NCBI RefSeq assembly: GCF_003334785.1
Contig: NZ_QOWV01000006.1
DNA length: 64,000 nucleotides
Source of the DNA: Escherichia coli
GTDB lineage: Bacteria > Pseudomonadota > Gammaproteobacteria > Enterobacterales > Enterobacteriaceae
Direction: 5' to 3' (one strand)
Positions 1 through 13,297 of the stretch are shown piece after piece (position 1 is the first letter of the stretch; every line of letters begins with the position of its first letter). The translations under genes were made by a program, and so were the position numbers. A model generated the notes under the pieces. The model searched no databases and was not told the DNA's origin. It saw only the letters and a list, made by a program, of their open reading frames with translations.

Positions 1-881
1 ACATTCAAAAGATCATAGACAAACGGCGTTGCGCCGAGCATACAGGTGCAACGCTGCTGCTCAAGCAGCGCGAGACACGCATCAGGAGTGAAAATATCTA
101 ACAACACGCTGCGAGCGCCAATTAAGAATGGTGCCGTTACGCCATGCAGAAAGCCCGTTGCGTGACCAAGTGGCGCAGGCATCATAAAGACATCCTGCCA
201 GGTCAGATTCAGTCGCGCGCAATAAGCCCGCTCACTGGCGAGAATATTGTTATGCGTTAGCATCACGCCCTTTGGCAGACCCTCGGTTCCGGAGGTAAAC
301 AGCACCGCAGCTAATTCATCGCCGTGGGTCGTTATCGCCGTGGTCAGTGAGGTATTGTCGGCGATAATCTGACTTAATGAGAGGGAAGAGGTGGCGGGAG
401 CCAGTTTGTCCACGCCGACAATTTGTTGTAGTTGTGGAAGCTGATTTTGCAGCGGCAGGATTAAATCTACCGGACGCGTTTGTTTAAACAACGTCGGTGC
501 AAAGAACATTTTTGCCTGACACTTATTGAGCACCCACACCAGTTCTGCTTCCCGCCAGGAAGGCAACAGCGGCACGGAAACTGCACCGATTTTCAGGCAG
601 GCAAGATAGATAACGGTAAATTCACACCAGCCAGGCAGTTGAAATGCGATGCGATCGCCTGATTCAATACCCTTCGCTAACATCCAGTTTGCCAGACAGT
701 TCGCGGCGTGATCGAGCGCGCTATAGGTGTACGATGCACCATGATTATCGACCACGGCAATTTTGTCTGGCATCGCACGAGCGGTCTGCTGCCAGTAATC
801 GGCCAGCGAAGCATCGCCCCATAACCCTTGCTGACGATACGCCGCACGACGTTGTTCGTTAAACGTTAATGTCACTTTCAT
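1..881 (-). CDS. fadK: Short-chain acyl-CoA synthetase, N-terminal part only (3' end lies beyond window position 1)
   Basis: Minus-strand ATG at 881..879; frame open to the window edge; translation begins MKVTLTFNEQRRAAYRQQGLWGD..., matching my recollection of E. coli FadK. Not in the ORF track because no stop falls inside the window. Confidence 0.8.
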   Translation of the reverse strand, partial: MKVTLTFNEQRRAAYRQQGLWGDASLADYWQQTARAMPDKIAVVDNHGASYTYSALDHAANCLANWMLAKGIESGDRIAFQLPGWCEFTVIYLACLKIGAVSVPLLPSWREAELVWVLNKCQAKMFFAPTLFKQTRPVDLILPLQNQLPQLQQIVGVDKLAPATSSLSLSQIIADNTSLTTAITTHGDELAAVLFTSGTEGLPKGVMLTHNNILASERAYCARLNLTWQDVFMMPAPLGHATGFLHGVTAPFLIGARSVLLDIFTPDACLALLEQQRCTCMLGATPFVYDLLN

Positions 882-937
882 GTTGGACTCTCGAAACAGA
901 ACATCAGGCCCGAGATGCGGGCCTGTGGGATGCATGA

Positions 938-1231
938 TTAGCCGTAGCGAAAATCAATACCGAAGGTGCCTGCGGGATATTGCCACTGTTCGAGAATAGT
1001 GTTACCGCACAGCACCCGACAGGTGCCGCACTCCAGACAACCGGCGGAATCAAAATGAATGTTTCCTGCGTCATCCTGCTTATAAAGTCCGGCAGGGCAG
1101 GCTTTCATTAATTTATGGAATTCATTGATATCGGGATTTTCCGCCAGAATGATATGCGGGTGGCCCTCATCAACATGGAATTTATTGACGCCTAATTTGA
1201 TGTCGACGTTAACCGTAGCGTTCTGGCTCAT
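938..1231 (-). CDS. ydiT: Ferredoxin-like protein, FixX family
   Basis: ORF track 97 aa; Cys cluster CLECGTCRVLC; 4-nt overlap with ydiS stop; position downstream of ydiQRS. Confidence 0.9.
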   Translation of the reverse strand: MSQNATVNVDIKLGVNKFHVDEGHPHIILAENPDINEFHKLMKACPAGLYKQDDAGNIHFDSAGCLECGTCRVLCGNTILEQWQYPAGTFGIDFRYG

Positions 1232-2517
1232 AGCGCGGTTGCTCCCTTAATGCCATCTTTCAGCAAGTTGATCAGCCCAATTTTCTTCGCATGTCCCATG
1301 ATCATTTTTCGTACCGGCTGGTTTGGTTTGCCGTCGATGGTGAACATCTCGTTCATGATGTCGGCTACCATTCGTGGGTATTGGCTAAACAGGCGCGGGT
1401 TTTCCATCAGCGCCGGGATCTTGCGAAAATGCTGCATATCACGCATGACGCAGCTTTGTTCCAGCTCACGTTTGTATTGCGCCAGACTGCTGGCGGAGAA
1501 ATCCGCGCGTTCTTTGGCGGCGATCACCGTTGTGGCGGCAGCCTGAGCCGATGCAATGGCTAAATCCATGCCGCGGACCGTAAAACCCAAATTCAGGCAG
1601 AAGCCTGCGGCGTCACCAACGATCATCACGCCCTCGTTAACCAGTTGCGGCACCATTGCCAGACCGCCTTCCGGCACCATATGCGCGGAATATTCAAGCA
1701 GTTTGCCGCCGCTAATCAGCGGGCGAATGGCGGGGTGTTGTTTAAAATCTTCCAGCATTTGCGGCACGCTTTTTTGCGCATGGGCGATATCACCCAATCC
1801 ACAAACCAGCCCCAAGGATATGGAATCCTTGTTGGTATAGAGAAATCCCCCGCCCATCAGGCCGTCAGAAGGGGAACCGGCAAACAGCCAGGCGGCACCT
1901 TCCTCGCCCGTAATATTAAAGCGATCGTTGATCTGTTCTGGTGTGAGGCCAATAACCTCTTTAACACCAACAGCGTAATGATGCGGATCGGAAGCGGGAA
2001 CCATTCCCAGCGAGCGGCCAAGCATCGAGTTAACGCCATCAGCCAGAATCACCACATTCGCTTCGAGAATATCATCCCCAGCCTGCACGCCAGTGACCTT
2101 GTTTCCTTCACGAACCAGCGCGTCGACGCGAACGCCTGGGATAAACTGCGCGCCCGCCTGCTCGGCTTGTTCCATCAACCACGGGTCCAGACGATTACGC
2201 AATACGGTATAAGATGCGTGTTGCGGAACATCTGGCTGCTCGCGGTGAAAATCGAGGGTAACGGCGCTTTCTTCGGTTAAGAAGGAGATTTTCTCGCGTG
2301 TGACCTTGCGTTCTACCGGCGCTGATACTGCAAAGCCTGGAATGATTGCTTCAAGTGTGTGGGCATAAAGACGCCCGCCGGTCATGTTTTTACATCCGGC
2401 ACTGTCGCCGCGTTCTATCACCAGGACATCCAGCCCGGCTCGTGCCATGACCAGTGCGGCAACGCTACCAGCAACGCCCGCACCGACCACAATGGCATCA
2501 AATTTGTCATCCGACAT
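1228..2517 (-). CDS. ydiS: FAD-dependent oxidoreductase, FixC family (ETF-quinone oxidoreductase-like)
   Basis: ORF track 429 aa; N-terminal dinucleotide-binding motif VVGAGVAGSVAA; ATG at 2517..2515 checked in sequence. Confidence 0.9.
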   Translation of the reverse strand: MSDDKFDAIVVGAGVAGSVAALVMARAGLDVLVIERGDSAGCKNMTGGRLYAHTLEAIIPGFAVSAPVERKVTREKISFLTEESAVTLDFHREQPDVPQHASYTVLRNRLDPWLMEQAEQAGAQFIPGVRVDALVREGNKVTGVQAGDDILEANVVILADGVNSMLGRSLGMVPASDPHHYAVGVKEVIGLTPEQINDRFNITGEEGAAWLFAGSPSDGLMGGGFLYTNKDSISLGLVCGLGDIAHAQKSVPQMLEDFKQHPAIRPLISGGKLLEYSAHMVPEGGLAMVPQLVNEGVMIVGDAAGFCLNLGFTVRGMDLAIASAQAAATTVIAAKERADFSASSLAQYKRELEQSCVMRDMQHFRKIPALMENPRLFSQYPRMVADIMNEMFTIDGKPNQPVRKMIMGHAKKIGLINLLKDGIKGATAL

Positions 2518-2572
2518 GCGTTATGCTCCCTTCCCGCTGCGTTTACAGCGGGAGATGTGGTTGAAAGGGGAA

Positions 2573-3511
2573 TTAGCGGCTCAACTGGCTAATCAGGGCA
2601 GGGACGACTTTGTAGATATCGCCCACCAGACCGTAGTCGGCATAGTTGAAGATTGGCGCATTTTTATCTTTATTGATGGCGACAATCACTTTTGCGCCGT
2701 TGCCGCCAACCATATGCTGGATCTGCCCGGAGATCCCCAGCGTCAGGTAGAGATCGGATTTCAGCAACACGCCGGAGACACCGATATAACGTTCACGCTC
2801 CATCCAGTTCTCGCCTTCGGCAATTGGACGTGAACAGCCGACTTCAGCATTCAGCACCGCCGCCAGTTCGTGGACCATTTTTAGGTCATCCTGCGCCGCC
2901 AGTCCACGACCGACGCCAACCACACGTTTTGCTTTGCTCAGGTCCACGCTGCTTGCGGCTTTCGCACGGCGTTCGCGACAGAGAATTTCATGACGCGGAG
3001 CAACATAAGGTACCGTTTCTGTCGGGCACTGATGAGAGGTATCACTGGTGCACGGTTCCTGAACACCGGGTGCAAGGGTAATGATCGCCAGCGGGCTGTT
3101 GATCTTTTCCTGAGCGAACGCTAACCCGCCATACATCCGGTGTTCGGCGCAAATGTGACCATCGACAATATCCACCGCCGTGGCATCGTTCACCAGCGCC
3201 GCATTCAGTTGCACACTTAACCGTGCTGCCAGCGCTTTACCACGTTTCGTCGCGGCCAACAGCAACATAGCGGGGTGTTTATCTTTCAGCAGGGCAGCAA
3301 TGCTTTCGGCGTAATTTTCAGTGCGTTGCAGCGCGTCGTTTTGCGCAAGAACATAAAGACATTTTGGACCATAAGGCATAACTGCCTGCGCCTGGTCGGT
3401 ATTTTGTACAATGGCATACACCTGTTGGCCCCATTGCTGAGCGCCGCCAAACAGTTCAGCATAACGTTCAGGATTATCGCTAAAGACCCAGACGCTGTTT
3501 AATTGACTCAT
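2573..3511 (-). CDS. ydiR: Electron transfer flavoprotein alpha subunit (FixB-like)
   Basis: ORF track 312 aa; ETF-alpha-like sequence; ATG at 3511..3509. Confidence 0.9.
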   Translation of the reverse strand: MSQLNSVWVFSDNPERYAELFGGAQQWGQQVYAIVQNTDQAQAVMPYGPKCLYVLAQNDALQRTENYAESIAALLKDKHPAMLLLAATKRGKALAARLSVQLNAALVNDATAVDIVDGHICAEHRMYGGLAFAQEKINSPLAIITLAPGVQEPCTSDTSHQCPTETVPYVAPRHEILCRERRAKAASSVDLSKAKRVVGVGRGLAAQDDLKMVHELAAVLNAEVGCSRPIAEGENWMERERYIGVSGVLLKSDLYLTLGISGQIQHMVGGNGAKVIVAINKDKNAPIFNYADYGLVGDIYKVVPALISQLSR

Positions 3512-3530
3512 CGTTTCTTCTCCGTAGGCT

Positions 3531-4295
3531 TCAGTTCAGGGCTTTCTTCAGATGTTCCGCCAGCTCGGCAATGGCCTCCGGCGAATCGTTATCGATAATG
3601 ATGTGCTTACGTTCTGTTTGCGGCGGTACGCGAATGCCGACCAGTTCAGCAAGTGGCGCGCTCTGGCTCCAGTCAATATCACTTGCCTGCCACTGATTTA
3701 CCGGTTTTTTACCCGCGCCGAGAATGGCTTTCATCGAAGGAATGCGTGGCACGTTAATATCGGAGGTGACGCAGAGCACGGCTGGAACAGAGAGTTCAAT
3801 AACTTCAACATCATCTTCAAGCGTGCGTTCAATCACCAGTGTATTGCCCTGACGCTGAATAGCACTCACTGCATTAATCACCGGAAGTTGCAGAATTTCT
3901 CCGACCAGCAAGCCAACCTGCTGGGCATAAAGGTCGCCGGAACCTTCACCAAAGATCAGTAAATCGAAGCCGATCTTTTCAATTGCTGCCGCCAGCGCTT
4001 TTGCGGTATCGAGAGGCAGTGCATGTTCAAGTTGCGCATCCTGCACCAAATACAGGCTGTGCGGCCCGCGGGATAGCACGTCTTTGCGCACTTTCGAGTT
4101 CTGCAACAATGAGCCGCCAACGGTCAGCGCGGCTATCTCATCGTCATCTGTTGCGAGCTGGCTTGCAGCTTCAATGGCATTGAGATCGAACTGGCTGATT
4201 TTGGCGTCGGCATTGTCGAAATTCAGGGTGTATTCTGGAGTGACAACAATGTCCTGTTCTTCAGGCACCAGCTTAAAGCAGGTTATTATTTTCAT
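3531..4295 (-). CDS. ydiQ: Electron transfer flavoprotein beta subunit (FixA-like)
   Basis: ORF track entry 3531..4394 trimmed to the internal ATG at 4295..4293 (MKIITCFKLV...), giving the 254-aa length I recall; the upstream extension is a GTG/TTG artefact. Confidence 0.85.
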   Translation of the reverse strand: MKIITCFKLVPEEQDIVVTPEYTLNFDNADAKISQFDLNAIEAASQLATDDDEIAALTVGGSLLQNSKVRKDVLSRGPHSLYLVQDAQLEHALPLDTAKALAAAIEKIGFDLLIFGEGSGDLYAQQVGLLVGEILQLPVINAVSAIQRQGNTLVIERTLEDDVEVIELSVPAVLCVTSDINVPRIPSMKAILGAGKKPVNQWQASDIDWSQSAPLAELVGIRVPPQTERKHIIIDNDSPEAIAELAEHLKKALN

Positions 4296-4610
4296 GATTT
4301 CTCCTGTGAGTCGCATACGGAACCATCTCCGATGGAAGGTAAAAATGGCCTGAAAATAGTGTGCGATAGCGGTGCGGGGTTTTCGACGGAGCAAGCTGTT
4401 TTCCTTGCCAACAATCTTGCAAAAAAAATGCGATCGCTAAAACAAAAGTGCAATTTGCGGCAATATAGTTATTCCATGACCGTACAATCTTGCATTCAGT
4501 GTAAATAATCTTGTTTAGCTCTCGCTAAACGCGGTTGTATAACCGCAATACACGCCGTATTTTATCCGGCATATATTGTTTTTGCTTGCTCATGGAATAG
4601 GGAGGTTGTC

Positions 4611-5522
4611 ATGTATCAACGCTGTTTTGATAACGCCAGTGAAACGCTGTTTGTCGCCGGTAAAACGCCACGGCTTTCACGTTTTGCATTTAGCGATGAT
4701 CCAAAATGGGAGTCCGGACATCACGTTCATGACAATGAAACCGAGTTGATTTACGTCAAGAAAGGGGTTGCAAGGTTTACCATCGATTCTTCGTTATATG
4801 TCGCACATGCGGATGACATTGTGGTGATAGAACGCGGCAGGCTGCATGCGGTGGCCTCTGACGTTAACGATCCGGCAACGACGTGTACCTGTGCGCTGTA
4901 CGGCTTTCAGTTTCAGGGGGCTGAGGAAAATCAGCTACTGCAACCGCATTCTTGTCCGGTAATTGCCGCGGGGCAGGGAAAAGAAGTCATAAAAACCTTA
5001 TTTAATGAGCTAAGTGTGATTTTGCCGCAAAGTAAAAATAGCCAAACATCTTCGTTATGGGATGCATTTGCCTATACGTTAGCCATTCTTTACTACGAAA
5101 ATTTTAAAAATGCTTATCGTTCGGAGCAGGGGTATATTAAAAAAGATGTTCTGATAAAAGATATTCTTTTCTATCTGAATAATAATTATCGCGAAAAAAT
5201 CACTTTAGAACAGTTATCGAAAAAATTTCGTGCCAGCGTCAGTTATATTTGCCATGAATTTACCAAAGAGTATCGTATTTCCCCTATTAACTATGTTATT
5301 CAACGGCGTATGACGGAAGCAAAATGGTCACTCACTAATACTGAATTATCACAGGCAGAGATCTCCTGGCGTGTGGGTTATGAAAATGTCGATCACTTTG
5401 CCAAACTGTTTTTGCGCCATGTCGGTTGTTCGCCCAGCGATTACCGTAGACAATTTAAAAACTGTTTTGCGGAACAAGAAATCCTATCTGAATTTCCTCA
5501 ACCGGTAAGTCTTGTTGGATAA
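4611..5522 (+). CDS. ydiP: AraC-family transcriptional regulator
   Basis: ORF track 303 aa; C-terminal AraC-type HTH region; divergent from ydiQRST with a 315-bp shared intergenic region. Confidence 0.9.
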   Translation: MYQRCFDNASETLFVAGKTPRLSRFAFSDDPKWESGHHVHDNETELIYVKKGVARFTIDSSLYVAHADDIVVIERGRLHAVASDVNDPATTCTCALYGFQFQGAEENQLLQPHSCPVIAAGQGKEVIKTLFNELSVILPQSKNSQTSSLWDAFAYTLAILYYENFKNAYRSEQGYIKKDVLIKDILFYLNNNYREKITLEQLSKKFRASVSYICHEFTKEYRISPINYVIQRRMTEAKWSLTNTELSQAEISWRVGYENVDHFAKLFLRHVGCSPSDYRRQFKNCFAEQEILSEFPQPVSLVG

Positions 5523-5564
5523 ATCTGGCGGCGCAGTTTGTTAAGAAGCTGCGCCGCCTGCAGA

Positions 5565-6716
5565 TTATTTGTTCTGATAGTCTTTCAGGATCTGCCGACC
5601 TGCTACGTAAATCATAATTTCGTCTGTACCGCCGCCGATACGTTCACAACGGACATCACGCCAGAAGCGGGAGACGCGCGCCTCATCGGTATAGCCCAGA
5701 CCGCCCATGATTTGAATCGCATCATCAATGACTTCCATTGCGGTACGTGCACAGTACAGTTTTGCCAGCGCCGCGCTGGTGCGCAGTGACTGATGCTGAT
5801 CGGCTTGCCATGCCACTTTCAGCACCATGTTGCGCATGTTGTCGATCTTAATCGCCATCAGCGCCAGTTTTTCCTGGATCATCTGGTTATGACCAATGGG
5901 CTTACCAAAAGCGATACGTTGGTTGGCATAGCGGGCGGCATCTTCAAAGGCGCATTCGGCAAAGCCGGTGCTGCGCGCGGCGTTGATCAGGCGCTCCATC
6001 TCAAAGTTGTACATCACATTGAGGAAACCCATTCCTTCTTCGCCCACCATGTCGCTCTCTTCAACCTCCACGTTGTCGAGATAGACTTCGCAGGTGCTGA
6101 GCATATGCCAGCCGATTTTATGCAGCGGGTTAATCTTAATGCCGGGCTTACTGGAGTCGACCCACCACAGGGTGAAGGCTTTTTTGGGATCTTTCGGTTG
6201 CGGATCGCGCGCCAGCACCAGCATATACGGGTACTCTTTCGCACCGGTAATAAAGGTTTTTTGTCCGTTGATGTAGACCTTGCCGTTTTTACGCGTGTAA
6301 GTGGTAGTGGCACTGTTGTTATCTGAGCCAGCACCTGGTTCCGTCAACGCCAGGGCATAGGCGGGATCACCCGTTTCCAGGGTGCTCTCTGCCGTTTTAC
6401 GTAGCTGCTCTGCAGAACCGAAACGGCGCATACTGTGAATACATTGACCGTTGGTAATTAAAAATGCCGGAGCACCGCATTTTGACACTTCCATCAGCGC
6501 CAGCATTTGGGTGACGTAATCCGCAGGGATACCACCAAATTCTTCCGGCACGCCAAGCATGGAAATACCGTTATCCGCCAGCGCCCGCATAAACTCACGC
6601 GGATATGTCCCGTTTTGATCGCAGGTGCGGAAATACTCTTCCGGAAAGTTAGTCGTAATCAGTTCGCGAATACTGGCCAGCAGCAGTTCTTGTTCTTCAG
6701 TTAAAGAAAAATCCAT
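5565..6716 (-). CDS. ydiO: Acyl-CoA dehydrogenase family protein
   Basis: ORF track 401 aa trimmed to the second of two adjacent ATGs (6716..6714) with AGGAG 7 nt upstream, giving 383 aa MDFSLTEEQ...; acyl-CoA dehydrogenase-like. Confidence 0.85.
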   Translation of the reverse strand: MDFSLTEEQELLLASIRELITTNFPEEYFRTCDQNGTYPREFMRALADNGISMLGVPEEFGGIPADYVTQMLALMEVSKCGAPAFLITNGQCIHSMRRFGSAEQLRKTAESTLETGDPAYALALTEPGAGSDNNSATTTYTRKNGKVYINGQKTFITGAKEYPYMLVLARDPQPKDPKKAFTLWWVDSSKPGIKINPLHKIGWHMLSTCEVYLDNVEVEESDMVGEEGMGFLNVMYNFEMERLINAARSTGFAECAFEDAARYANQRIAFGKPIGHNQMIQEKLALMAIKIDNMRNMVLKVAWQADQHQSLRTSAALAKLYCARTAMEVIDDAIQIMGGLGYTDEARVSRFWRDVRCERIGGGTDEIMIYVAGRQILKDYQNK

Positions 6717-6729
6717 CATTATACTCCTG

Positions 6730-8325
6730 TTAATGAGCCGCTTCAGGCAGGACAAAACCCATCGCCGCATCGATAAATAATCTTTCGTCCATCAGTTTGA
6801 GTTCTGGCGAAATCACTGGGGTGAAATCCATTTTGTCGAGAATATCTTTTTGTAAATCGACGCCAGGGGCGATTTCGATTAAATGCAGGCCGTCTTCTTT
6901 CAGCGTGAATACTGCGCGCTCAGTGATATAACGAACATCCAGCCCTCGCTCGAGAGCGATTTTTCCGCTGAAAGTAATTTCCGGTAGTTCCCGAATAAAT
7001 TTCTTCACCCGTCCTTCCTGGACGATATTTAATTTGCCGTCGGTAATTTCTGTTTTTAAACTGCCCGCAGTTAATGTGCCGCAGAAAATGATTTTCTTCG
7101 AAGTGGCACTGATATCAATAAATCCACCGGTGCCCATGATTTTACCATTGAATTTATGCACGCCGACGTTACCGTGCTGGTCGACTTCAGCAAAACTCAA
7201 ATAACAAACATCCAGACCGCCACCGTGATAAAAATCAAACTGGGACGTCATATCCAGAATGGCACGGGTATTCACGTTCGCGCCAAAGGCGATCCCCTGT
7301 GAAGTAATTCCGCCAATCGGACCTGTTTCTACCGTCAGAATAAAGTCATCAGCACAACCTTCTTCTCGGGCGACCAGGCCAATGCCGTCAGCAATACCGA
7401 CGCCGACATTCCCCACCGCGCCTTTACGCATTTCGAATAATGCGCGCCGCGCAACTAATTTACGTTGGTTTAGGGGCAGGCTAAGTTTGGTACTGTCATC
7501 AAGGGTGAAGTCACCAGAAATAAAGCGGTTAACCGGTGCACCGCCATACAGTTGGGTTTGATCCGGATCGACCACCACAATATCCACCAGATAACCCGGA
7601 ATACGGACAGATTTAGGATGCAGCGTGGCTTTCTTAACCATTTTCTGCACCTGCATCATCACAATACCGCCGTTATTGTGCACCGCCTGGGCAATAACCA
7701 ATGCGTCGAGATACATCACCTCATCTTCAAAAGTGGCGTAGCCTTCACTGTCGCAGGTGGTAGCGCGAATGAAGGCAATATCTGGCGCAATCGCTTTGTA
7801 ATAGAGATATTCTTTGTTATCAAACTCGACCAGTTTAATCAGGTCTTCTTTAGTGACTTCATTCAGTTTGCCGCCTTGCTGGCGTGGATCGACAAATGTC
7901 CCGATGCCAATATCACTAATAATACCAGGCTGGTGGGCTGCGGCGGCGCGTAAGGTTTGTGTAAGTACACCTTGTGGGTAGTTATAAGCAATAATTTTAT
8001 TTTGTTCTGCGAGTTCAGAAATACGCGGCGATTGTCCCCAGTGACCACATAATGCCCATTTCACCAGACCTTCTTGCGCCAGAGGACTAATACCACGGTC
8101 GGCGCGATCGCCAAGCCCTGTTGGACTAATAATCGATAAATTACGTGGTGTTTGAGTCTGTTTATATTTATCAGCAAGAGCAGTAATTAACGTGGTGGCT
8201 TCCAGAATACCGCCGCCAGCGCCTAACACACAAAGTGTTGCTTCGTCGGGAATATAATTCACCGCTTCCTGTGCCGACAGGACCGGCACTCGTCCATTAA
8301 TACGAGGTGGTTTTACAGGTTTCAT
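6730..8325 (-). CDS. ydiF: Short-chain acyl-CoA:acetate CoA-transferase, fused alpha/beta subunits
   Basis: ORF track 531 aa; stop 11 nt upstream of the ydiO start (tight operon). Confidence 0.9.
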   Translation of the reverse strand: MKPVKPPRINGRVPVLSAQEAVNYIPDEATLCVLGAGGGILEATTLITALADKYKQTQTPRNLSIISPTGLGDRADRGISPLAQEGLVKWALCGHWGQSPRISELAEQNKIIAYNYPQGVLTQTLRAAAAHQPGIISDIGIGTFVDPRQQGGKLNEVTKEDLIKLVEFDNKEYLYYKAIAPDIAFIRATTCDSEGYATFEDEVMYLDALVIAQAVHNNGGIVMMQVQKMVKKATLHPKSVRIPGYLVDIVVVDPDQTQLYGGAPVNRFISGDFTLDDSTKLSLPLNQRKLVARRALFEMRKGAVGNVGVGIADGIGLVAREEGCADDFILTVETGPIGGITSQGIAFGANVNTRAILDMTSQFDFYHGGGLDVCYLSFAEVDQHGNVGVHKFNGKIMGTGGFIDISATSKKIIFCGTLTAGSLKTEITDGKLNIVQEGRVKKFIRELPEITFSGKIALERGLDVRYITERAVFTLKEDGLHLIEIAPGVDLQKDILDKMDFTPVISPELKLMDERLFIDAAMGFVLPEAAH

Positions 8326-8467
8326 TGTTAATTCCTGATTCAGATGTGATTTTCCCTACGCCAAATGGAGAATTAGCGCACAGAGACTCACGAAATATTT
8401 TTATTAAATACGATTGAATATATTTTTTAGTTCGGCGGGGAGGGTGTTCCCGCCGAAATATTATTGC

Positions 8468-9226
8468 TTATGCCTGGTGTAAAATAGTTAATACCGTGCG
8501 CAAATCATTTACCGAGATTTGCCCTGGCGCAGACGCTTTTTTTACCGCACCAAAAGTTGCCGCCGAGCCAAATACTTCACCAGCCAGACGAGAAATTACG
8601 CCAGTTTTTGCCATCGACATCGTGATAATTGGACGATCGGCATACTGCTCCTGCATCTCCAGGGTCGCGGCAAGCAACGTCAGCACATCGCTGGTACTTT
8701 GCGGCATCAGCGCAATCTTAGGAATATCGGCGTCGAAGGATTGCATTTTGCGCAGACGGGCAATGATTTCTTCGGCTTCCGGCGTTTTATGGAAGTCATG
8801 GTTGGACATGACTACTTTCACATCATGCGCGTGGGCGTAGGCGACGGTTTCTTTAACCTGATCATCACCGGTAAATAACTCCAGATCGATCATATCAACC
8901 AGGCCGCTGTCGATGGCTGCACGATTGAGTGCAATATAAGCCTCGGTGGAAATCGCCTGCTCGCCGCCTTCTTTGGCACTGCGGAAGGTAAACAGCAGCG
9001 GTTTTTCTGGCATGGTCTCACGGAGAATTTTTGCTGCCGCCATGACAGACTCCACATTGGAGAGGTCGGCATAGTGGTCCACACGCCATTCCAGAATATC
9101 AAAGTCCGCTTCACGATAGGCGAGAGCTTCGGATTTCACGCTGGCGATATCTTTCGCCATCAGCGAGACGATGATTTTAGGTGCGCCCGTACCAATGACG
9201 AGATCTTTTACAGTTACGGTTTTCAT
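8468..9226 (-). CDS. aroD: 3-dehydroquinate dehydratase (type I)
   Basis: ORF track 252 aa; recognised AroD sequence and length. Confidence 0.92.
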
Positions 9227-9256
9227 TTTTTACCCTTTCTGCACGCGGTCAGCCTG

Positions 9257-10123
9257 TCAGGCACCGAACCCCATGACCTGTTTAACATATTCCAGAGGGA
9301 AATCTTTGCCAGTCCATAATGTGAACTGTTCAGCCCCTTGCCACAACAACATGCCGTATCCATCAATCGTTTTGCAACCAGCTTGTTGCGCCTGCTGCAA
9401 TAACTTCGTCATATGCGGGTTATACACGCATTCAGTGACCAGAAGTCCCGGATGTAACAGACTGATATCATTAACCAATGATTCATTCTCAAGGGGTTTC
9501 ATACCCACTTTTGTGCCATTGGTTAAAATGTCGGCGGAAGCCAGGGCTTCAGCAAAGGCTTGCTGATCGGCGAGATCGGTGACCGTGACGACACAATCGG
9601 TGTTTTCATTAACCCGCTGCGCGAAGGCGAGGGCTTTATCGAAGAACTCATCCCGACGGTTAAAGAGTTTAATTTCTTTTAAACCTTCAATTGCCCCCTG
9701 CGCGCCAATTGCCGTTGAGGCACCACCGGCCCCTAACAGCACCATCGTTTTGCCTTTGATATCAAAACCGCTCTCTTTAATGGCGCGAATATGGCCCGTG
9801 CCGTCGGTGTTATAGCCACGCAGATAGCCATCATCATTAACGATGGTGTTGATGGCCCCCACCAGTTTGGCAGCTGGTGTTAATTCATCAACATATTCAC
9901 ACGCCAGTTGTTTGTTCGGCATCGATACACCAGTTCCGCGCATTTTGAGGGCTTTTAATCCTTCAATTGCTCCAGGAAAGCTATCGTTATCCACTTCGAA
10001 GGCCATATAGGTAAATGGCAATCCCGCTTTTTCTAAGGCTTTATTCTGCATTTCGGGCGATAAACTGTGGCGGATAGGATAGGCCATCAACCCAATCAAT
10101 TCGTATTTTGCGGTAACATCCAT
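9257..10123 (-). CDS. ydiB: Quinate/shikimate dehydrogenase, NAD(P)-dependent
   Basis: ORF track 288 aa; shikimate dehydrogenase family; 30 nt upstream of aroD. Confidence 0.9.
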
Positions 10124-10134
10124 AATTAACTCCT

Positions 10135-11400
10135 TTAACCTCTATGCTTAATTGTGTTTAACCGGGTGCAAAATTTACGCTCGCCAAACCGCACATCATT
10201 TTCAGGAATAATGAAAACGCGGTAATAGCGGATAAAAACAATAATTGCGGTAATCAGGGCCAGCAGCGCGAAAGTAAAATCGAGAACAATGATATATTGC
10301 AGGCCGATGTTCGACAGATAACCGGTAATCAGTGGAATAACAAAGTTAGCCAGTCCACCCATCATCATATAAATACTGGTGACTTTGGCTTTGCTTTTGG
10401 GAAAAAACTCTGACATGACCGAAACGCCGAGCTGTAAAATGCCGCCAGCTGCTGAGAAACCGATAACAAAGGCTCCGGCATTGCACACCAGTGGAGAAGG
10501 GTACAGGTAGATAATGGCTGCTGTTATTGTTGCCAGTGCAGAGTTAAATACATTAGCCCAGATGGGCCGGACCATTTTTTTCAGTAGTGCGGCAAAAATA
10601 AAGACACAGACCAACGAGCCCATACTGTAATAAGAGATGGTTTTTAATGCCTCAGCTTCTGACATACCAGCAAAAGCCATCGCATATTTGGGCATCCACA
10701 CCACAATCACATAAAAGGTCGAGAATGCGGCTACACCGAACAGTACCGATGAAACACCTTCCAGCCAGACTAACGGTTTGCTGTTCATTTGCGGTAATTC
10801 ATTAGTTACGCTGGCGTCCACCAACTGGCTGGGGAATTTGCTTTTCAACAGCATCAGCGTGATCAGTACAAATAGAATACCCGGAATAATCAGCCCATAG
10901 CCGTACCAGATATTATTGAGCAACATATAGCTCACCAGCATTGGGTAGAACATTTGCCCAAATGACACCATCGCTTTAACCAGTATGACCGCCGAACCAG
11001 AGGCTTTCGGAAAGCATTCCATGAGCGCGGGGTAGCCACCCGTATCCAGCGCTGAGTTAGCGATACCTACGCACACTGCCAGACCGTAGGCGAGAGTTAA
11101 ATTCGGGCAAGCGGGAATACCAAAGAAGAATAGCAGATACATTATTACTGCCATTAATATCACCGCCCGACGACCAAACTTATCGGAGATCACACCGAAG
11201 AATAAAATACTGATCAATCGCCCCAAACCGATACCGGAAATTAAGTAGGCAATGCCCGCGTTGTCAGTGGAAAACTTTTCCGCCAGAGATGACATATTTT
11301 GGGCAAGCGTAATAACACTAATGCCGTGCAGGAAGTAGCTGAAGTAAATACAAAGAACAGCCAGGATAAATGGCGTGCTGAAAGCCTTATTTTGAGACAT
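10135..11400 (-). CDS. ydiN: MFS-family transporter
   Basis: ORF track 423 aa (GTG at 11406) trimmed to ATG 11400..11398 with AAGGAG 8 nt upstream; polytopic hydrophobic sequence. Confidence 0.85.
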
Positions 11401-11626
11401 TTTCACAGCTCCTTGCTGAAAGATAATTTCGTTACCGTACGTATTGTTCTCCGACGGTTTACATAATTACTATACTGAAGATGATTTTCCCTGGGTACAT
11501 GGCATAAAGTTTATGTTTCCAGGAATATTGCATGTCATAGTTTGTTTTTGATCGCGATTTTCCTTAGTTAGCGCAGAAAGAGTTATTTATCCGTAAGATC
11601 TTGCATGACCTGAAAAGAATATTGCA

Positions 11627-12841
11627 TTACCCACCCGGAGCGACATTTTCCTTTAGCGAGTGATGCCGCGTTTTTTTGCGGCTGCGTAAGCCGATAAACA
11701 GTGCCAGTAAAAAACCGATGGCAGCGATGGCGGTATCGAACCACATAATATCGGCAATACTTCTTTGGGACAGATGAGCCGTAATCAACGGAATAGTAAA
11801 GGTCGCAATACTGCCCGCACTGTAATAGATCCCTGTAGCTTTACCTTTAGCGTAAGGGAAACGTTCAGCCATTAACGTCAGGCCAATTTGCACAACACCT
11901 CCAGCAGAGGTAAAACCAATGACAAAAGCAAATATTATCACCACATAAAATGTGGGATGCAGGCAGACGGTAAACAGAGCAATAAATGAGATAAAGGTGT
12001 ACAGCATCAGTAATGTTGTTGGGCGAACGGTATTACGAATGAGTGGAGCGGTAATAAATACACAAAGCAGCGAACCCACGGTGTAGATACTGAGTAGTTT
12101 GATCGACATAGTGTATGACATGCCTGCAACAAATTGTCCGTACTGTGCCAGCCACTGGCTAACCAGATAAAACGTTGCCATTGAGATATAGCCATATAAG
12201 GTATAACTGGCTAAATCGATAATTGAACAGCGATGTTCCGTAGAGCTGGTGGTTTTCTTTATGACAGGTAAGCGACGACCCGGATGGGGTGGGAACGTAC
12301 AACGGTATAAAAACAGAGCGTTAATAAACATAATGCCTGCAGCAATCATAAAGGACCAACCGAACCACAGTTCAGCCCACACTAACAGGCTAATGATTAG
12401 CGGTAATAAAAATTGTCCGCTGGAAACAAATGCTTTAATTAAAATATTGGCTGTCCCAGGTGAGCGTGGAAAAGCTTCCATCAAACTGGGATAAGTGCCT
12501 GCATCGAGAAAACTGTTTGCCATTCCCGCCAGAAAGCCAAAAACATAAGCGATAATGATGTTATTGGTCTGCAGGATGCCAAAAAAGAAGGCCATATAGC
12601 AGCACATCCCGAGCATGATAAAAGGGCGGCGACCAAAGCGATCGGATAATAATCCTGCAAAAAGCAAGACACTTAATCGACCAATGCCCAGCGATGAGAT
12701 AACTATCGAGACACCCGCGGCATTAGTCTGCCAAAGTGTCTCCAGCGAGGCCATATTCAGGCTCATCAAAAGGACGCCCATACCATGCACCAGGTAATTA
12801 AAATACAACCCAAGTGCGGTAGGGAAATAGGGATTTTTCAT
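11627..12841 (-). CDS. ydiM: MFS-family transporter
   Basis: ORF track 404 aa; paralogous in sequence to ydiN. Confidence 0.88.
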   Translation of the reverse strand: MKNPYFPTALGLYFNYLVHGMGVLLMSLNMASLETLWQTNAAGVSIVISSLGIGRLSVLLFAGLLSDRFGRRPFIMLGMCCYMAFFFGILQTNNIIIAYVFGFLAGMANSFLDAGTYPSLMEAFPRSPGTANILIKAFVSSGQFLLPLIISLLVWAELWFGWSFMIAAGIMFINALFLYRCTFPPHPGRRLPVIKKTTSSTEHRCSIIDLASYTLYGYISMATFYLVSQWLAQYGQFVAGMSYTMSIKLLSIYTVGSLLCVFITAPLIRNTVRPTTLLMLYTFISFIALFTVCLHPTFYVVIIFAFVIGFTSAGGVVQIGLTLMAERFPYAKGKATGIYYSAGSIATFTIPLITAHLSQRSIADIMWFDTAIAAIGFLLALFIGLRSRKKTRHHSLKENVAPGG

Positions 12842-12940
12842 AGGTTCTACTTAGCAAAGGTGCTTTAAAAAGTGAAGCGATGTTGTGTCAGCATCCGTTC
12901 ATTATTGTTGTAACAACGACAATTCCTTTCTGTGGAAAAA

Positions 12941-13297
12941 TTAACAAAGCCGCTCCAGATCGTGTGCATATAATTCAGCAGCTACCGATTGATAGATCTT
13001 CCAGTCAATAAAATTGCCATCAGGGTAGACTCGTTGAAATGCGGTTAAGTCGGGGAAAAAACGCATGGTGTTGTTGCCGATGCGGTTATTTATTTTCTCT
13101 ATGATGGCATGAAGATGTTTTTTTCTTTGCTGACGCATAGCCAACAGTTGCTCGACTACACGATCAGGAATGGCACACTTGCCATTTTCCCACTGACGCC
13201 AGCTTTCACTGTCACCGGTCTGGGCAATCCAGGTCGCGCATTCATCAATAGTCATGGCAAAAATATGGCGGAGTGCCTGGAGTTCATAAGCGTTCAT
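12941..13297 (-). CDS. ydiL: Small DUF1870-type protein
   Basis: ORF track 127 aa starts at a TTG; trimmed to ATG 13297..13295 (MNAYELQALRH...), 118 aa as I recall for YdiL. Confidence 0.75.
   Translation of the reverse strand: MNAYELQALRHIFAMTIDECATWIAQTGDSESWRQWENGKCAIPDRVVEQLLAMRQQRKKHLHAIIEKINNRIGNNTMRFFPDLTAFQRVYPDGNFIDWKIYQSVAAELYAHDLERLC

Follow-up and report, generated by a model that had tools for sequence, protein, structure and literature searches.

The window analyzed here, a stretch of 64,000 nucleotides from Escherichia coli (assembly GCF_003334785.1, contig NZ_QOWV01000006.1), begins within a cluster of ydi genes that code for an electron transfer flavoprotein (ETF), its FixC- and FixX-like partners, an acyl-coenzyme A (CoA) dehydrogenase, a CoA-transferase and an acyl-CoA ligase; we propose that, together with its neighbours, this gene set may serve the reduction of shikimate. 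Positions 1-8325 are the known fadK-ydiTSRQ / ydiP / ydiOF cluster of E. coli K-12. The first 9000 positions differ from MG1655 (NZ_CP032667.1, 2098686-2107685) by a single mismatch at window position 700, where the window has T and NZ_CP032667.1 has C; this is base 2 of fadK codon 61, which specifies Asn here and Ser in NZ_CP032667.1. Of 5426 complete E. coli genomes, 5346 contain at least 80% of this 9-kb stretch. Neither the locus and its genes nor the notion that YdiO is linked to an ETF is new. The ydiO, ydiF and ydiQRST genes have been cited as poorly understood E. coli genes (PMC6412132), and they have been used in reverse β-oxidation engineering, although no natural substrate is known for them (PMC10318755).

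Gene identities were assigned with NCBIfam and Pfam models. On the minus strand, ydiQ (3531-4295; ETF beta, or small, subunit), ydiR (2573-3511; ETF alpha, or large, subunit), ydiS (1228-2517; a flavoprotein resembling FixC and ETF-quinone oxidoreductase), ydiT (938-1231; a FixX-like ferredoxin with the cysteines for one [4Fe-4S] cluster; NF011993, 144 bits) and fadK (acyl-CoA ligase; NF004758, 1087 bits over the full length) succeed one another with spacings of 19, 55, −4 (the 4-nt overlap of ydiS with ydiT) and 56 nt, which is compatible with a single operon from ydiQ to fadK. The last gene of this unit, fadK, is cut by the window edge (<1-881), so that codons 1-293 of 548 lie within the window. 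In the ydiT-fadK gap, a G+C-rich stem-loop on the same strand (905-925; −17.7 kcal/mol, z = −2.0) lacks a clear U-tract. The ydiP gene (4611-5522, plus strand) codes for an AraC-family regulator with a cupin ligand-binding domain (PF07883/PF02311) and an HTH_18 domain (PF12833). It is divergent from ydiQ, with a 315-nt gap, and convergent with ydiO, with a 42-nt gap (5523-5564). A perfect 13-bp hairpin (5527-5558; −27.1 kcal/mol, z = −5.4) fills nearly the whole of the latter gap and is probably a bidirectional terminator. Next on the minus strand are ydiO (5565-6716; NF008997, 787 bits), which codes for a CaiA-family acyl-CoA dehydrogenase / enoyl-CoA reductase, and ydiF (6730-8325), which codes for a fused family I CoA-transferase whose residues 1-531 match PDB entries 2AHU, 2AHV and 2AHW ('putative enzyme ydiF') with 1188 bits.

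A preliminary description, made from the sequence alone, had recognized the minus-strand ydiQ-ydiR-ydiS-ydiT-fadK unit, the divergent ydiP and the neighbouring ydiO and ydiF, and NCBIfam upheld each identity. The distance from the ydiF stop to the ydiO start, given there as 11 nt, is actually 13 nt (TAA at 6732-6730; annotated ATG at 6716). A tandem in-frame ATG at 6719 would give a 10-nt gap; an AGGAG at 6728-6724 lies 7 nt ahead of the ATG at 6716, and this spacing favours the annotated start. YdiF has the fused alpha/beta CoA-transferase fold of family I, and a trapped glutamyl-CoA intermediate of the enzyme has been reported.

Beyond position 8325, the minus strand carries aroD (8468-9226; type I 3-dehydroquinate dehydratase; TIGR01093, 292 bits with a cut-off of 139), ydiB (9257-10123; NAD(P)-dependent quinate/shikimate dehydrogenase; NF009390, 670 bits with a cut-off of 349) and ydiN (10135-11400), which codes for a major facilitator superfamily (MFS) transporter and is the first gene of ydiN-ydiB-aroD; ydiM (11627-12841, minus strand) also lies outside 1-8325. 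A G+C-rich 9-bp hairpin directly 3′ of aroD (8431-8457; −17.6 kcal/mol, z = −4.1) lacks a minus-strand U-tract. An Rfam scan of positions 1-13000 gave zero matches. Consensus promoter and terminator scans were discarded: they returned 8 and 14 hits, relative to 10.7 and 11.9 in shuffled sequence, and hence only individual hairpins were used.

Relatives of YdiO were collected with one genome per species and 10-kb flanks, and 13 E. coli proteins of the region were mapped on the resulting 45 loci. The ydiF and ydiO genes were neighbours in all 45 species-level loci, and aroD-ydiB-ydiN was present wherever the flank was long enough. On contigs of sufficient length, the order ydiN-ydiB-aroD-ydiF-ydiO / ydiP / ydiQRST-fadK was preserved in Escherichia, Citrobacter, Kosakonia, Intestinirhabdus, Yersinia, Serratia, Dickeya, Brenneria, Prodigiosinella and Symbiopectobacterium. 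Identities of the E. coli proteins to those of Yersinia are 92-93% for YdiO, 88-90% for YdiF, ∼85% for YdiB, and 65-79% for the ETF, ligase and regulator. Such conservation of YdiO is unusually high for an enterobacterial metabolic enzyme.

The same genes recur in other arrangements. The betaproteobacteria Sutterella seckii and S. wadsworthensis have fadK-ydiTSRQ <> ydiN-ydiB-aroD-ydiF-ydiO, and ydiP is missing between the divergent arms; YdiO and YdiF are 80-84% identical to those of E. coli, and the YdiB and dehydroquinase copies score 520 bits (NF009390) and 247 bits (TIGR01093). The G+C content of the Sutterella cluster resembles that of its flanks, and unrelated genes follow ydiO. Two metagenome contigs have other organizations: L052 (43% G+C) carries, on a single strand, MFS-ydiF-ydiO-etfB-etfA-DHquinase_I-fixC-fixX-ligase, and L055 (42% G+C) carries AraC <> MFS-ydiF-ydiO-etfB-etfA-shikimate dehydrogenase-DHquinase_I-fixC-fixX (identities to E. 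coli of 45% for YdiP, 69% for the YdiN MFS protein, 83% for YdiO, 77% for the shikimate dehydrogenase and 69% for DHquinase_I). A search of a plasmid collection with the L052 operon gave no match. In both contigs a dehydroquinase gene lies between etfA and fixC, joined in L055 by a shikimate dehydrogenase gene, a placement difficult to account for unless the two enzymes share one pathway with the ETF and YdiF-YdiO. Three clusters with a family III CoA-transferase (L050, L051 and L053) contain no dehydroquinase or shikimate dehydrogenase genes, so the hydroaromatic link is specific to the YdiF/YdiO clade. Judged by gene order, the putative functional unit runs past position 8325 and takes in aroD, ydiB and ydiN, as seen in four independent arrangements; the preliminary description limited it to 1-8325 and missed this continuation.

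Interrupted or reduced forms of the locus were also encountered. In the laboratory strain E. coli ET12567 (NZ_CP045457.1, 1470790-1481127) the 9-kb query matched in two pieces spread over 10.3 kb, and a transposase annotated as IS4-like, ISVsa5 family, lies under the match, so that an insertion sequence is present within the ydi region. In E. coli E69 (L047, CP089930.1), ydiF is joined by only some 71 codons from the start of ydiO (76% identity where matched), beyond which ppsA lies, so that ydiO-ydiP-ydiQRST-fadK seem to have been lost by natural deletion. Enterobacter sp. EA-1 (L046) carries a degraded cluster in which ydiS, ydiP and ydiN were unmatched.

The proteins of the region were then compared with those of the cai/fix (carnitine) locus of the same genome. 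YdiQ is 56% identical to FixA, YdiR 45% to FixB, YdiS 61% to FixC, YdiT 62% to FixX, YdiO 48% to CaiA (over 382 residues) and FadK 29% to CaiC; the NCBIfam models for FixA, FixB, FixC and FixX all match YdiQ, YdiR, YdiS and YdiT. YdiO scored 452 bits with the CaiA model NF002885 (cut-off 540), and hence belongs to the CaiA family but is no CaiA equivalog. YdiF has no paralogue in cai/fix, CaiB being a transferase of family III. On these protein comparisons, the ydi locus can be described as a second copy of the anaerobic carnitine-reduction design. Both loci have divergent operons with a dedicated regulator, and the proposed ydi scheme would share ligase priming, CoA transfer and ETF-fed anaerobic enoyl-CoA reduction with the carnitine system. 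They differ in the CoA-transferase (family III CaiB, family I YdiF), in the regulator (CaiF, and the AraC-type YdiP), in that the CaiD hydratase, the CaiT antiporter and CaiE have no ydi counterpart, and in that the ydi neighbours are quinate/shikimate genes. Alignment revealed that both YdiO and CaiA have Gly at the position of the catalytic Glu of medium-chain acyl-CoA dehydrogenase (YEGT to GGGT), and that both have a Glu just ahead of a conserved Arg (E241-R242 in YdiO). The latter is the position used by isovaleryl-CoA and long-chain dehydrogenases.

It had been left open whether YdiO uses this ETF. For carnitine reduction under anaerobic conditions, fixA and fixB have been published as needed (title of Walt & Kahn 2002, as cited in PMC11007987), and the title of Gulevich et al. 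(2016), as it appears in the reference list of PMC10318755, has ydiO and ydiQRST form one dehydrogenase complex. Among YdiO homologues retrieved from a search of a large protein collection, we found the YdiO-type gene immediately upstream of YdiQ/YdiR-type etfB-etfA in Desulfovibrio desulfuricans (L050), in Escherichia albertii (L051) and on the metagenome contigs L052, L053 and L055. Recurring as it does in unrelated arrangements, this adjacency offers good comparative support for YdiO-family enzymes working with this type of ETF. Two YdiO homologues, P0027 (74%) and P0006 (89%), had no ETF genes in the stretch examined, so the linkage is common, not universal. Together, the Fix/Cai paralogy and the ydiO-etf adjacency support the earlier assignment to the type of ETF-coupled acyl-CoA dehydrogenases/enoyl-CoA reductases with a CoA-transferase and a ligase.

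The clusters of the family III type have features of their own. In D. desulfuricans (CP036295.1, 7271-19772) co-directional, mostly tightly spaced genes code for a family III CoA-transferase, an MFS protein, a YdiO-like protein (63%), EtfB, EtfA, FixC, FixX, a metallo-β-lactamase-fold protein, an acyl-CoA ligase and a dCache chemoreceptor, the last of which suggests that the enoate substrate is sensed; L053 is similar. In a further paralogous module, that of E. albertii (Logan SRR13061442, 4504-12872), genes for an AraC regulator, a family III CoA-transferase, an MFS protein and an acyl-CoA dehydrogenase are divergent from the YdiO-like gene (68%) and etfB-etfA, and FixC/FixX genes are not nearby. 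The contigs L048 and L049 (5847-11143) carry a lone YdiO homologue (74%), with no ETF genes within 10 kb, beside an aldo-keto reductase and a membrane module of the cytochrome c / 4Fe-4S / NrfD type.

The association of the two E. coli operons extends to their promoters. Upstream of ydiQ (4414-4515, minus strand) there are three sites of the form TGCAA-N-AT: C at 4414-4421 (TGCAAGAT), B at 4487-4494 (TGCAAGAT) and A at 4508-4515 (AACAAGAT). Upstream of ydiN (11525-11626, minus strand) the corresponding sites are C at 11525-11532, B at 11598-11605 and A at 11619-11626. At both promoters the spacing is A-21-B-73-C, all sites lie on the gene strand, and the two regions align gap-free across the three sites; the distance from C to the ATG is 119 nt for ydiQ and 125 nt for ydiN. 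Within the ydiP-ydiQ gap, ACAATCTTGCA occurs twice, exactly and 73 nt apart, and phylogenetic footprinting found the core TGCAAGAT at two spots of this gap in 10 of 10 enterobacterial genera. Throughout the window the three-site pattern occurred at the ydiQ and ydiN promoters only (4e-7 expected), and the 21-nt TGCAA-N-AT pair was unique (0.05 expected). The single 8-mer TGCAANAT was rejected as a signal, since its 22 occurrences in the window relative to 17.7 expected are no enrichment; the significance thus resides in the spaced arrangement only.

With one mismatch allowed, the 21-nt pair was found upstream of ydiN in nearly all genera examined, with a spacing of 22 nt in Kosakonia. The exception is an Enterobacterales metagenome-assembled genome (L035), which has a lone exact site in the scanned ydiN upstream region and the 21-nt pair in the ydiP-ydiQ gap. 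Such pairs also occur beside the YdiP orthologue of L055 and, in both Sutterella species, between the divergent ydiQ and ydiN. The Sutterella gap (L038, 3655-5018; L034, 3464-4949) is ∼1.4 kb long, has a lowered G+C content (49-54%) and contains no open reading frame of at least 90 amino acids; as it holds operator pairs and no adjacent ydiP, the regulator must be encoded elsewhere. AraC-family proteins bind direct repeats two helical turns apart. We infer that YdiP binds the shared operator and would thereby co-regulate ydiN-ydiB-aroD and ydiQRST-fadK. A chromatin immunoprecipitation (ChIP-chip) target of FNR has been published for the ydiP/ydiQ region, with a predicted site TTGAC-N4-ATCAA (PMC1802558), in agreement with the anaerobic operation suggested in the preliminary description. 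We located this predicted site at 4741-4764 (minus strand), within the ydiP coding sequence: it is not intergenic, and lies ∼140 nt into ydiP and ∼450 nt upstream of the ydiQ start.

One function that has been considered for these genes is anaerobic β-oxidation, in which YdiO would oxidize straight-chain acyl-CoAs made by FadK, electrons would pass from YdiO through YdiQR and YdiT/YdiS to quinone and on to nitrate or another terminal reductase, and aroD-ydiB-ydiN would be unrelated. This is the published assignment (the title of Gulevich et al., 2016, via PMC10318755; a statement in PMC3967523), and it is in line with the FNR target within the region. The NCBIfam name for FadK, medium-chain fatty-acid--CoA ligase, points the same way, and the ETF-quinone-oxidoreductase-like YdiS is suited to quinone delivery. 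A CoA-transferase beside a reductase, as CaiB and CarA, serves a product-to-substrate CoA loop, and β-oxidation needs none; yet ydiF-ydiO is the most conserved pair of the region (88-93% between E. coli and Yersinia) and is never separated. Nor does β-oxidation account for the dehydroquinase/shikimate dehydrogenase genes inside the etf-fixCX operon of two other lineages, or for the operator held in common with the ydiN promoter. Furthermore, no thiolase or hydratase/dehydrogenase genes were present within 10 kb in any arrangement examined, and CaiA, the closest paralogue of YdiO, acts as a reductase. Straight-chain β-oxidation is the chief rival of the reading proposed below, but we consider it rather unlikely to be the main role of the locus.

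Whether the ETF bifurcates electrons or simply conducts them was examined from signature residues. The zipper position of the small subunit reads D-G-D-T-A-Q in 216 bifurcating ETFs (Thr 100%, Gly 95%) and D-D-D-x-N-Q in 449 canonical ones, and the ribose of the bifurcating flavin adenine dinucleotide (FAD) forms hydrogen bonds with a pair of Thr residues (T94/T97 in RpaETF) (PMC8958531). YdiQ was aligned with FixA, with its homologues from Sutterella, Desulfovibrio and E. albertii, with the bifurcating 6FAH and 5OL2, and with canonical ETFs (1EFP and human). All aligned members of the YdiQ/FixA clade have DLYAQQ at the zipper position, which is neither the bifurcating nor the canonical signature; the human and Paracoccus ETFs read DDDCNQ and DNDMNA in these columns. 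We assigned the putative ribose-binding Thr pair to the DTWAT segment of bifurcating ETFs; YdiQ has LPLDT there (L-P-x-x-T in the clade), such that the first Thr is replaced by Pro and the second is kept. YdiT has the motif C65-x2-C68-x2-C71-x3-C75 and a lone C45-P. Thermotoga maritima EtfX (7koe_D) has in addition C-x3-C-x4-C-x2-CCP, and in the alignment of the two (3e-14) this first Cys motif is missing from YdiT; E. coli FixX has four cysteines in total. YdiS carries a ubiquinone-binding domain (PF21162, ETFQO_UQ-bd) and matches T. maritima FixC (7koe_C) at 5.6e-70.

These features bear on the possibility that the complex performs flavin-based electron bifurcation, with a second FAD in YdiQ taking up the electrons of NADH, one of which would pass to enoyl-CoA or quinone and the other to ferredoxin or flavodoxin. 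Overall similarity speaks for it: YdiQ is nearer to bifurcating ETFs (1e-22 for CarD, relative to ∼1e-12 to 1e-13 for mitochondrial-type ETFs), and the top PDB matches of YdiQ/YdiR are CarD/CarE, C. difficile EtfAB and LctBC, ahead of the mitochondrial type. YdiS and YdiT match T. maritima EtfC and EtfX, the N-terminus of YdiQ (KLVPEEQD) is similar to the KQVPD of bifurcating ETFs, and in our alignment YdiR R125 ('HRMYGG') appears to coincide with the Arg of the bifurcating site. Against it stand the clade-wide loss of DGDTAQ, the Pro in place of the first ribose-binding Thr and the lack in YdiT of the Cys residues for one of the two EtfX clusters; by eye, moreover, E. coli FixB carries Met at the Arg position. 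The combination of DLYAQQ, a single-cluster YdiT and the quinone domain of YdiS favours a plain wire over NADH-driven bifurcation, which we regard as very improbable here. A wire of the form quinol <-> YdiS <-> YdiT <-> YdiQR <-> YdiO would, on these residues, fit better. The potentials of menaquinol (∼−74 mV) and of enoyl-CoA/acyl-CoA couples (near −10 mV) are such that the wire could run in either direction. The preliminary description had allowed for coupling to ferredoxin or quinone, and had proposed to place YdiQR among bifurcating or non-bifurcating ETFs. Quinone coupling is the better supported of the two, by the YdiS domain and the FixC resemblance, and bifurcation is not favoured; by signature YdiQR falls in neither the bifurcating nor the canonical group, which does not refute the idea put forward there.

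Comparison with characterized complexes leads to the same distinction. The FixABCX/EtfABCX complexes of Azotobacter vinelandii and T. maritima (PDB 7KOE) have the same four-subunit composition as the ydi set, but their EtfB carries DGDTAQ and their EtfX two [4Fe-4S] motifs, compared with DLYAQQ and one motif in the ydi proteins; the ydi set is attached to an acyl-CoA dehydrogenase and a CoA-transferase, whereas bifurcating FixABCX is attached to nitrogenase electron supply. The CarABCDE system of Acetobacterium woodii, which serves caffeate respiration, has matching parts (the CoA-transferase CarA, the ligase CarB, the acyl-CoA-dehydrogenase-type reductase CarC and the ETF CarDE), with CarD/CarE among the best PDB matches of YdiQ/YdiR and CarC matching YdiO (6fah_C). 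However, CarCDE is soluble and bifurcating, works with NADH and ferredoxin, and has a ferredoxin domain in CarE; YdiQR has no bifurcating signature and no extra domain, and a membrane-associated FixC/FixX pair is present instead.

The inclusion of aroD, ydiB and ydiN in the unit, together with the common operator, makes shikimate the most likely substrate. Shikimate is a cyclohex-1-ene-1-carboxylate, and hence its CoA ester is an enoyl-CoA with the double bond where a CaiA-type enzyme acts. YdiB catalyses two interconversions, one between quinate and 3-dehydroquinate and one between shikimate and 3-dehydroshikimate, and AroD links the two keto acids, so that all of these compounds can be channelled to shikimate. 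We therefore propose, with a probability of about one half, that the locus encodes a shikimate-type CoA-loop reductase that uses shikimate as an anaerobic electron acceptor. In a module of this kind, an acid whose C=C bond adjoins the carboxyl group is processed as the CoA thioester; the carnitine and caffeate systems likewise pair a CoA-transferase beside the reductase with a priming ligase. In this scheme YdiN would import shikimate or another hydroaromatic acid, and YdiB and AroD would convert quinate, 3-dehydroquinate and 3-dehydroshikimate to shikimate. FadK would prime the first CoA thioester with ATP, after which YdiF would move CoA from the product to fresh substrate, giving shikimoyl-CoA. 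YdiO, with its FAD, would then reduce the C=C bond of shikimoyl-CoA to yield 3,4,5-trihydroxycyclohexane-1-carbonyl-CoA, from which hydroshikimate would be freed by CoA transfer. Electrons would flow from the menaquinol pool through the membrane-associated YdiS (FAD and quinone site), YdiT and YdiQR to YdiO, with no NADH-dependent bifurcation, and YdiP would turn on the whole regulon through the three-site operator. The substrate, the reaction direction, the quinol donor and YdiP binding are what we infer in this scheme. The broader statement, that ydiN-to-fadK serves a hitherto unrecognized CoA-dependent, ETF/quinol-fed respiration of dietary hydroaromatic acids in E. coli and in gut- and plant-associated Proteobacteria including Sutterella, has in our estimate slightly less than even odds.

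Physiological data from other organisms are consistent with this proposal. Sutterella wadsworthensis grows on formate and shikimate, and the enoate is reduced to hydroshikimate (bioRxiv 10.1101/2022.12.26.521950); the type strain carries the cluster (L038). The overall reaction of gut shikimate respiration described by Little et al., shikimate to hydroshikimate as an electron sink, matches the one proposed here, and one of the two organisms in which it was shown, S. wadsworthensis, has a ydi-type cluster. The Eggerthella lenta enzyme differs in that it is a flavin reductase of the fumarate/urocanate-reductase kind that acts on the free acid, while the ydi route would be cytoplasmic, CoA-dependent and ETF-fed. 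In E. coli PB12.SA22, which accumulates shikimate, ydiQ, ydiR, ydiS and ydiT were among ∼50 upregulated genes (PMC4015609). A preprint mention of '3-hydroshikimate' in E. coli Nissle supernatant was not counted, as the compound is described there as a shikimate-pathway product.

The same CoA-loop machine might act on another substrate or in another direction, for example on 3-dehydroshikimate or on later intermediates toward cyclohexanecarboxylate; in an oxidative variant, hydroshikimate from other gut bacteria would be turned into shikimate for aromatic biosynthesis. The gene context for such roles is identical to that for shikimate reduction. The gut microflora reportedly turns shikimate into cyclohexanecarboxylate (Brewster et al., summarized in PMC7558350), extra aldo-keto reductase or HAD genes are present in L052 and L055, and YdiO matches cyclohexane-1-carbonyl-CoA dehydrogenase models, well under their cut-offs. 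The E. coli cluster, however, has no dehydratase genes for removal of the ring hydroxyls, and hydroshikimate is the sole product measured in a cluster-bearing organism. The second-best NCBIfam match of FadK is cyclohexanecarboxylate-CoA ligase, well under the cut-off, but its 417 bits compare with 403 bits for a generic fatty-acid ligase, and this likeness was dropped as evidence. We give such other substrates or directions only a small chance.

Several observations weigh against shikimate reduction as the role of the locus. FadK has reportedly been tied to C6-C8 fatty acids (Campbell 2003), and published work assigns YdiF to short-chain acyl-CoAs; these fatty-acid activities could be physiological, or they could be side activities of the system. 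The operator motif is absent from the aroD-ydiF gap and from the promoter of shiA, which codes for the shikimate transporter. Hence ydiFO lacks a separate operator and shiA falls outside the putative regulon; since the aroD hairpin also has no U-tract on the gene strand, ydiFO may be read through from the ydiN promoter. Synteny within the Enterobacterales could be inherited and not selected, and aroD has a biosynthetic role as well. The reaction direction is not readable from sequence. The transcriptome of the shikimate-accumulating strain had no shikimate-free control and is circumstantial only (PMC4015609). The E. lenta shikimate reductase is a flavin reductase (bioRxiv 10.1101/2022.12.26.521950), and Sutterella has many flavin reductases, so that shikimate respiration there may not use the cluster. 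Neither shikimate reduction by E. coli nor hydroaromatic activity of YdiF, FadK or YdiO was found in the literature searched, and no paper linking the ydi cluster to shikimate was found in that search, which was incomplete.

Relative to the searched literature, what is new here is the evidence for a unit that includes aroD-ydiB-ydiN, the conserved three-site operator common to both promoters, the distinct ETF/FixX clade with DLYAQQ and a single cluster, and the substrate hypothesis. If the CoA-dependent reduction of shikimate proposed here is correct, it would give a physiological function to ∼10 y-genes and answer a question that is ∼20 years old. YdiQRST and their relatives would then form an ETF/FixCX clade of their own, probably non-bifurcating and supplying CaiA-family reductases, and the cluster would be a candidate enzyme system for Sutterella shikimate respiration. 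It would also put the long-standing finding that the gut flora reduces shikimate and quinate on a molecular footing, and, as both compounds are abundant in plant foods, would add an electron acceptor to enterobacterial gut physiology. Finally, it would begin to explain how microbes convert shikimate to cyclohexanecarboxylate, a source of hippurate in the host (PMC7558350).

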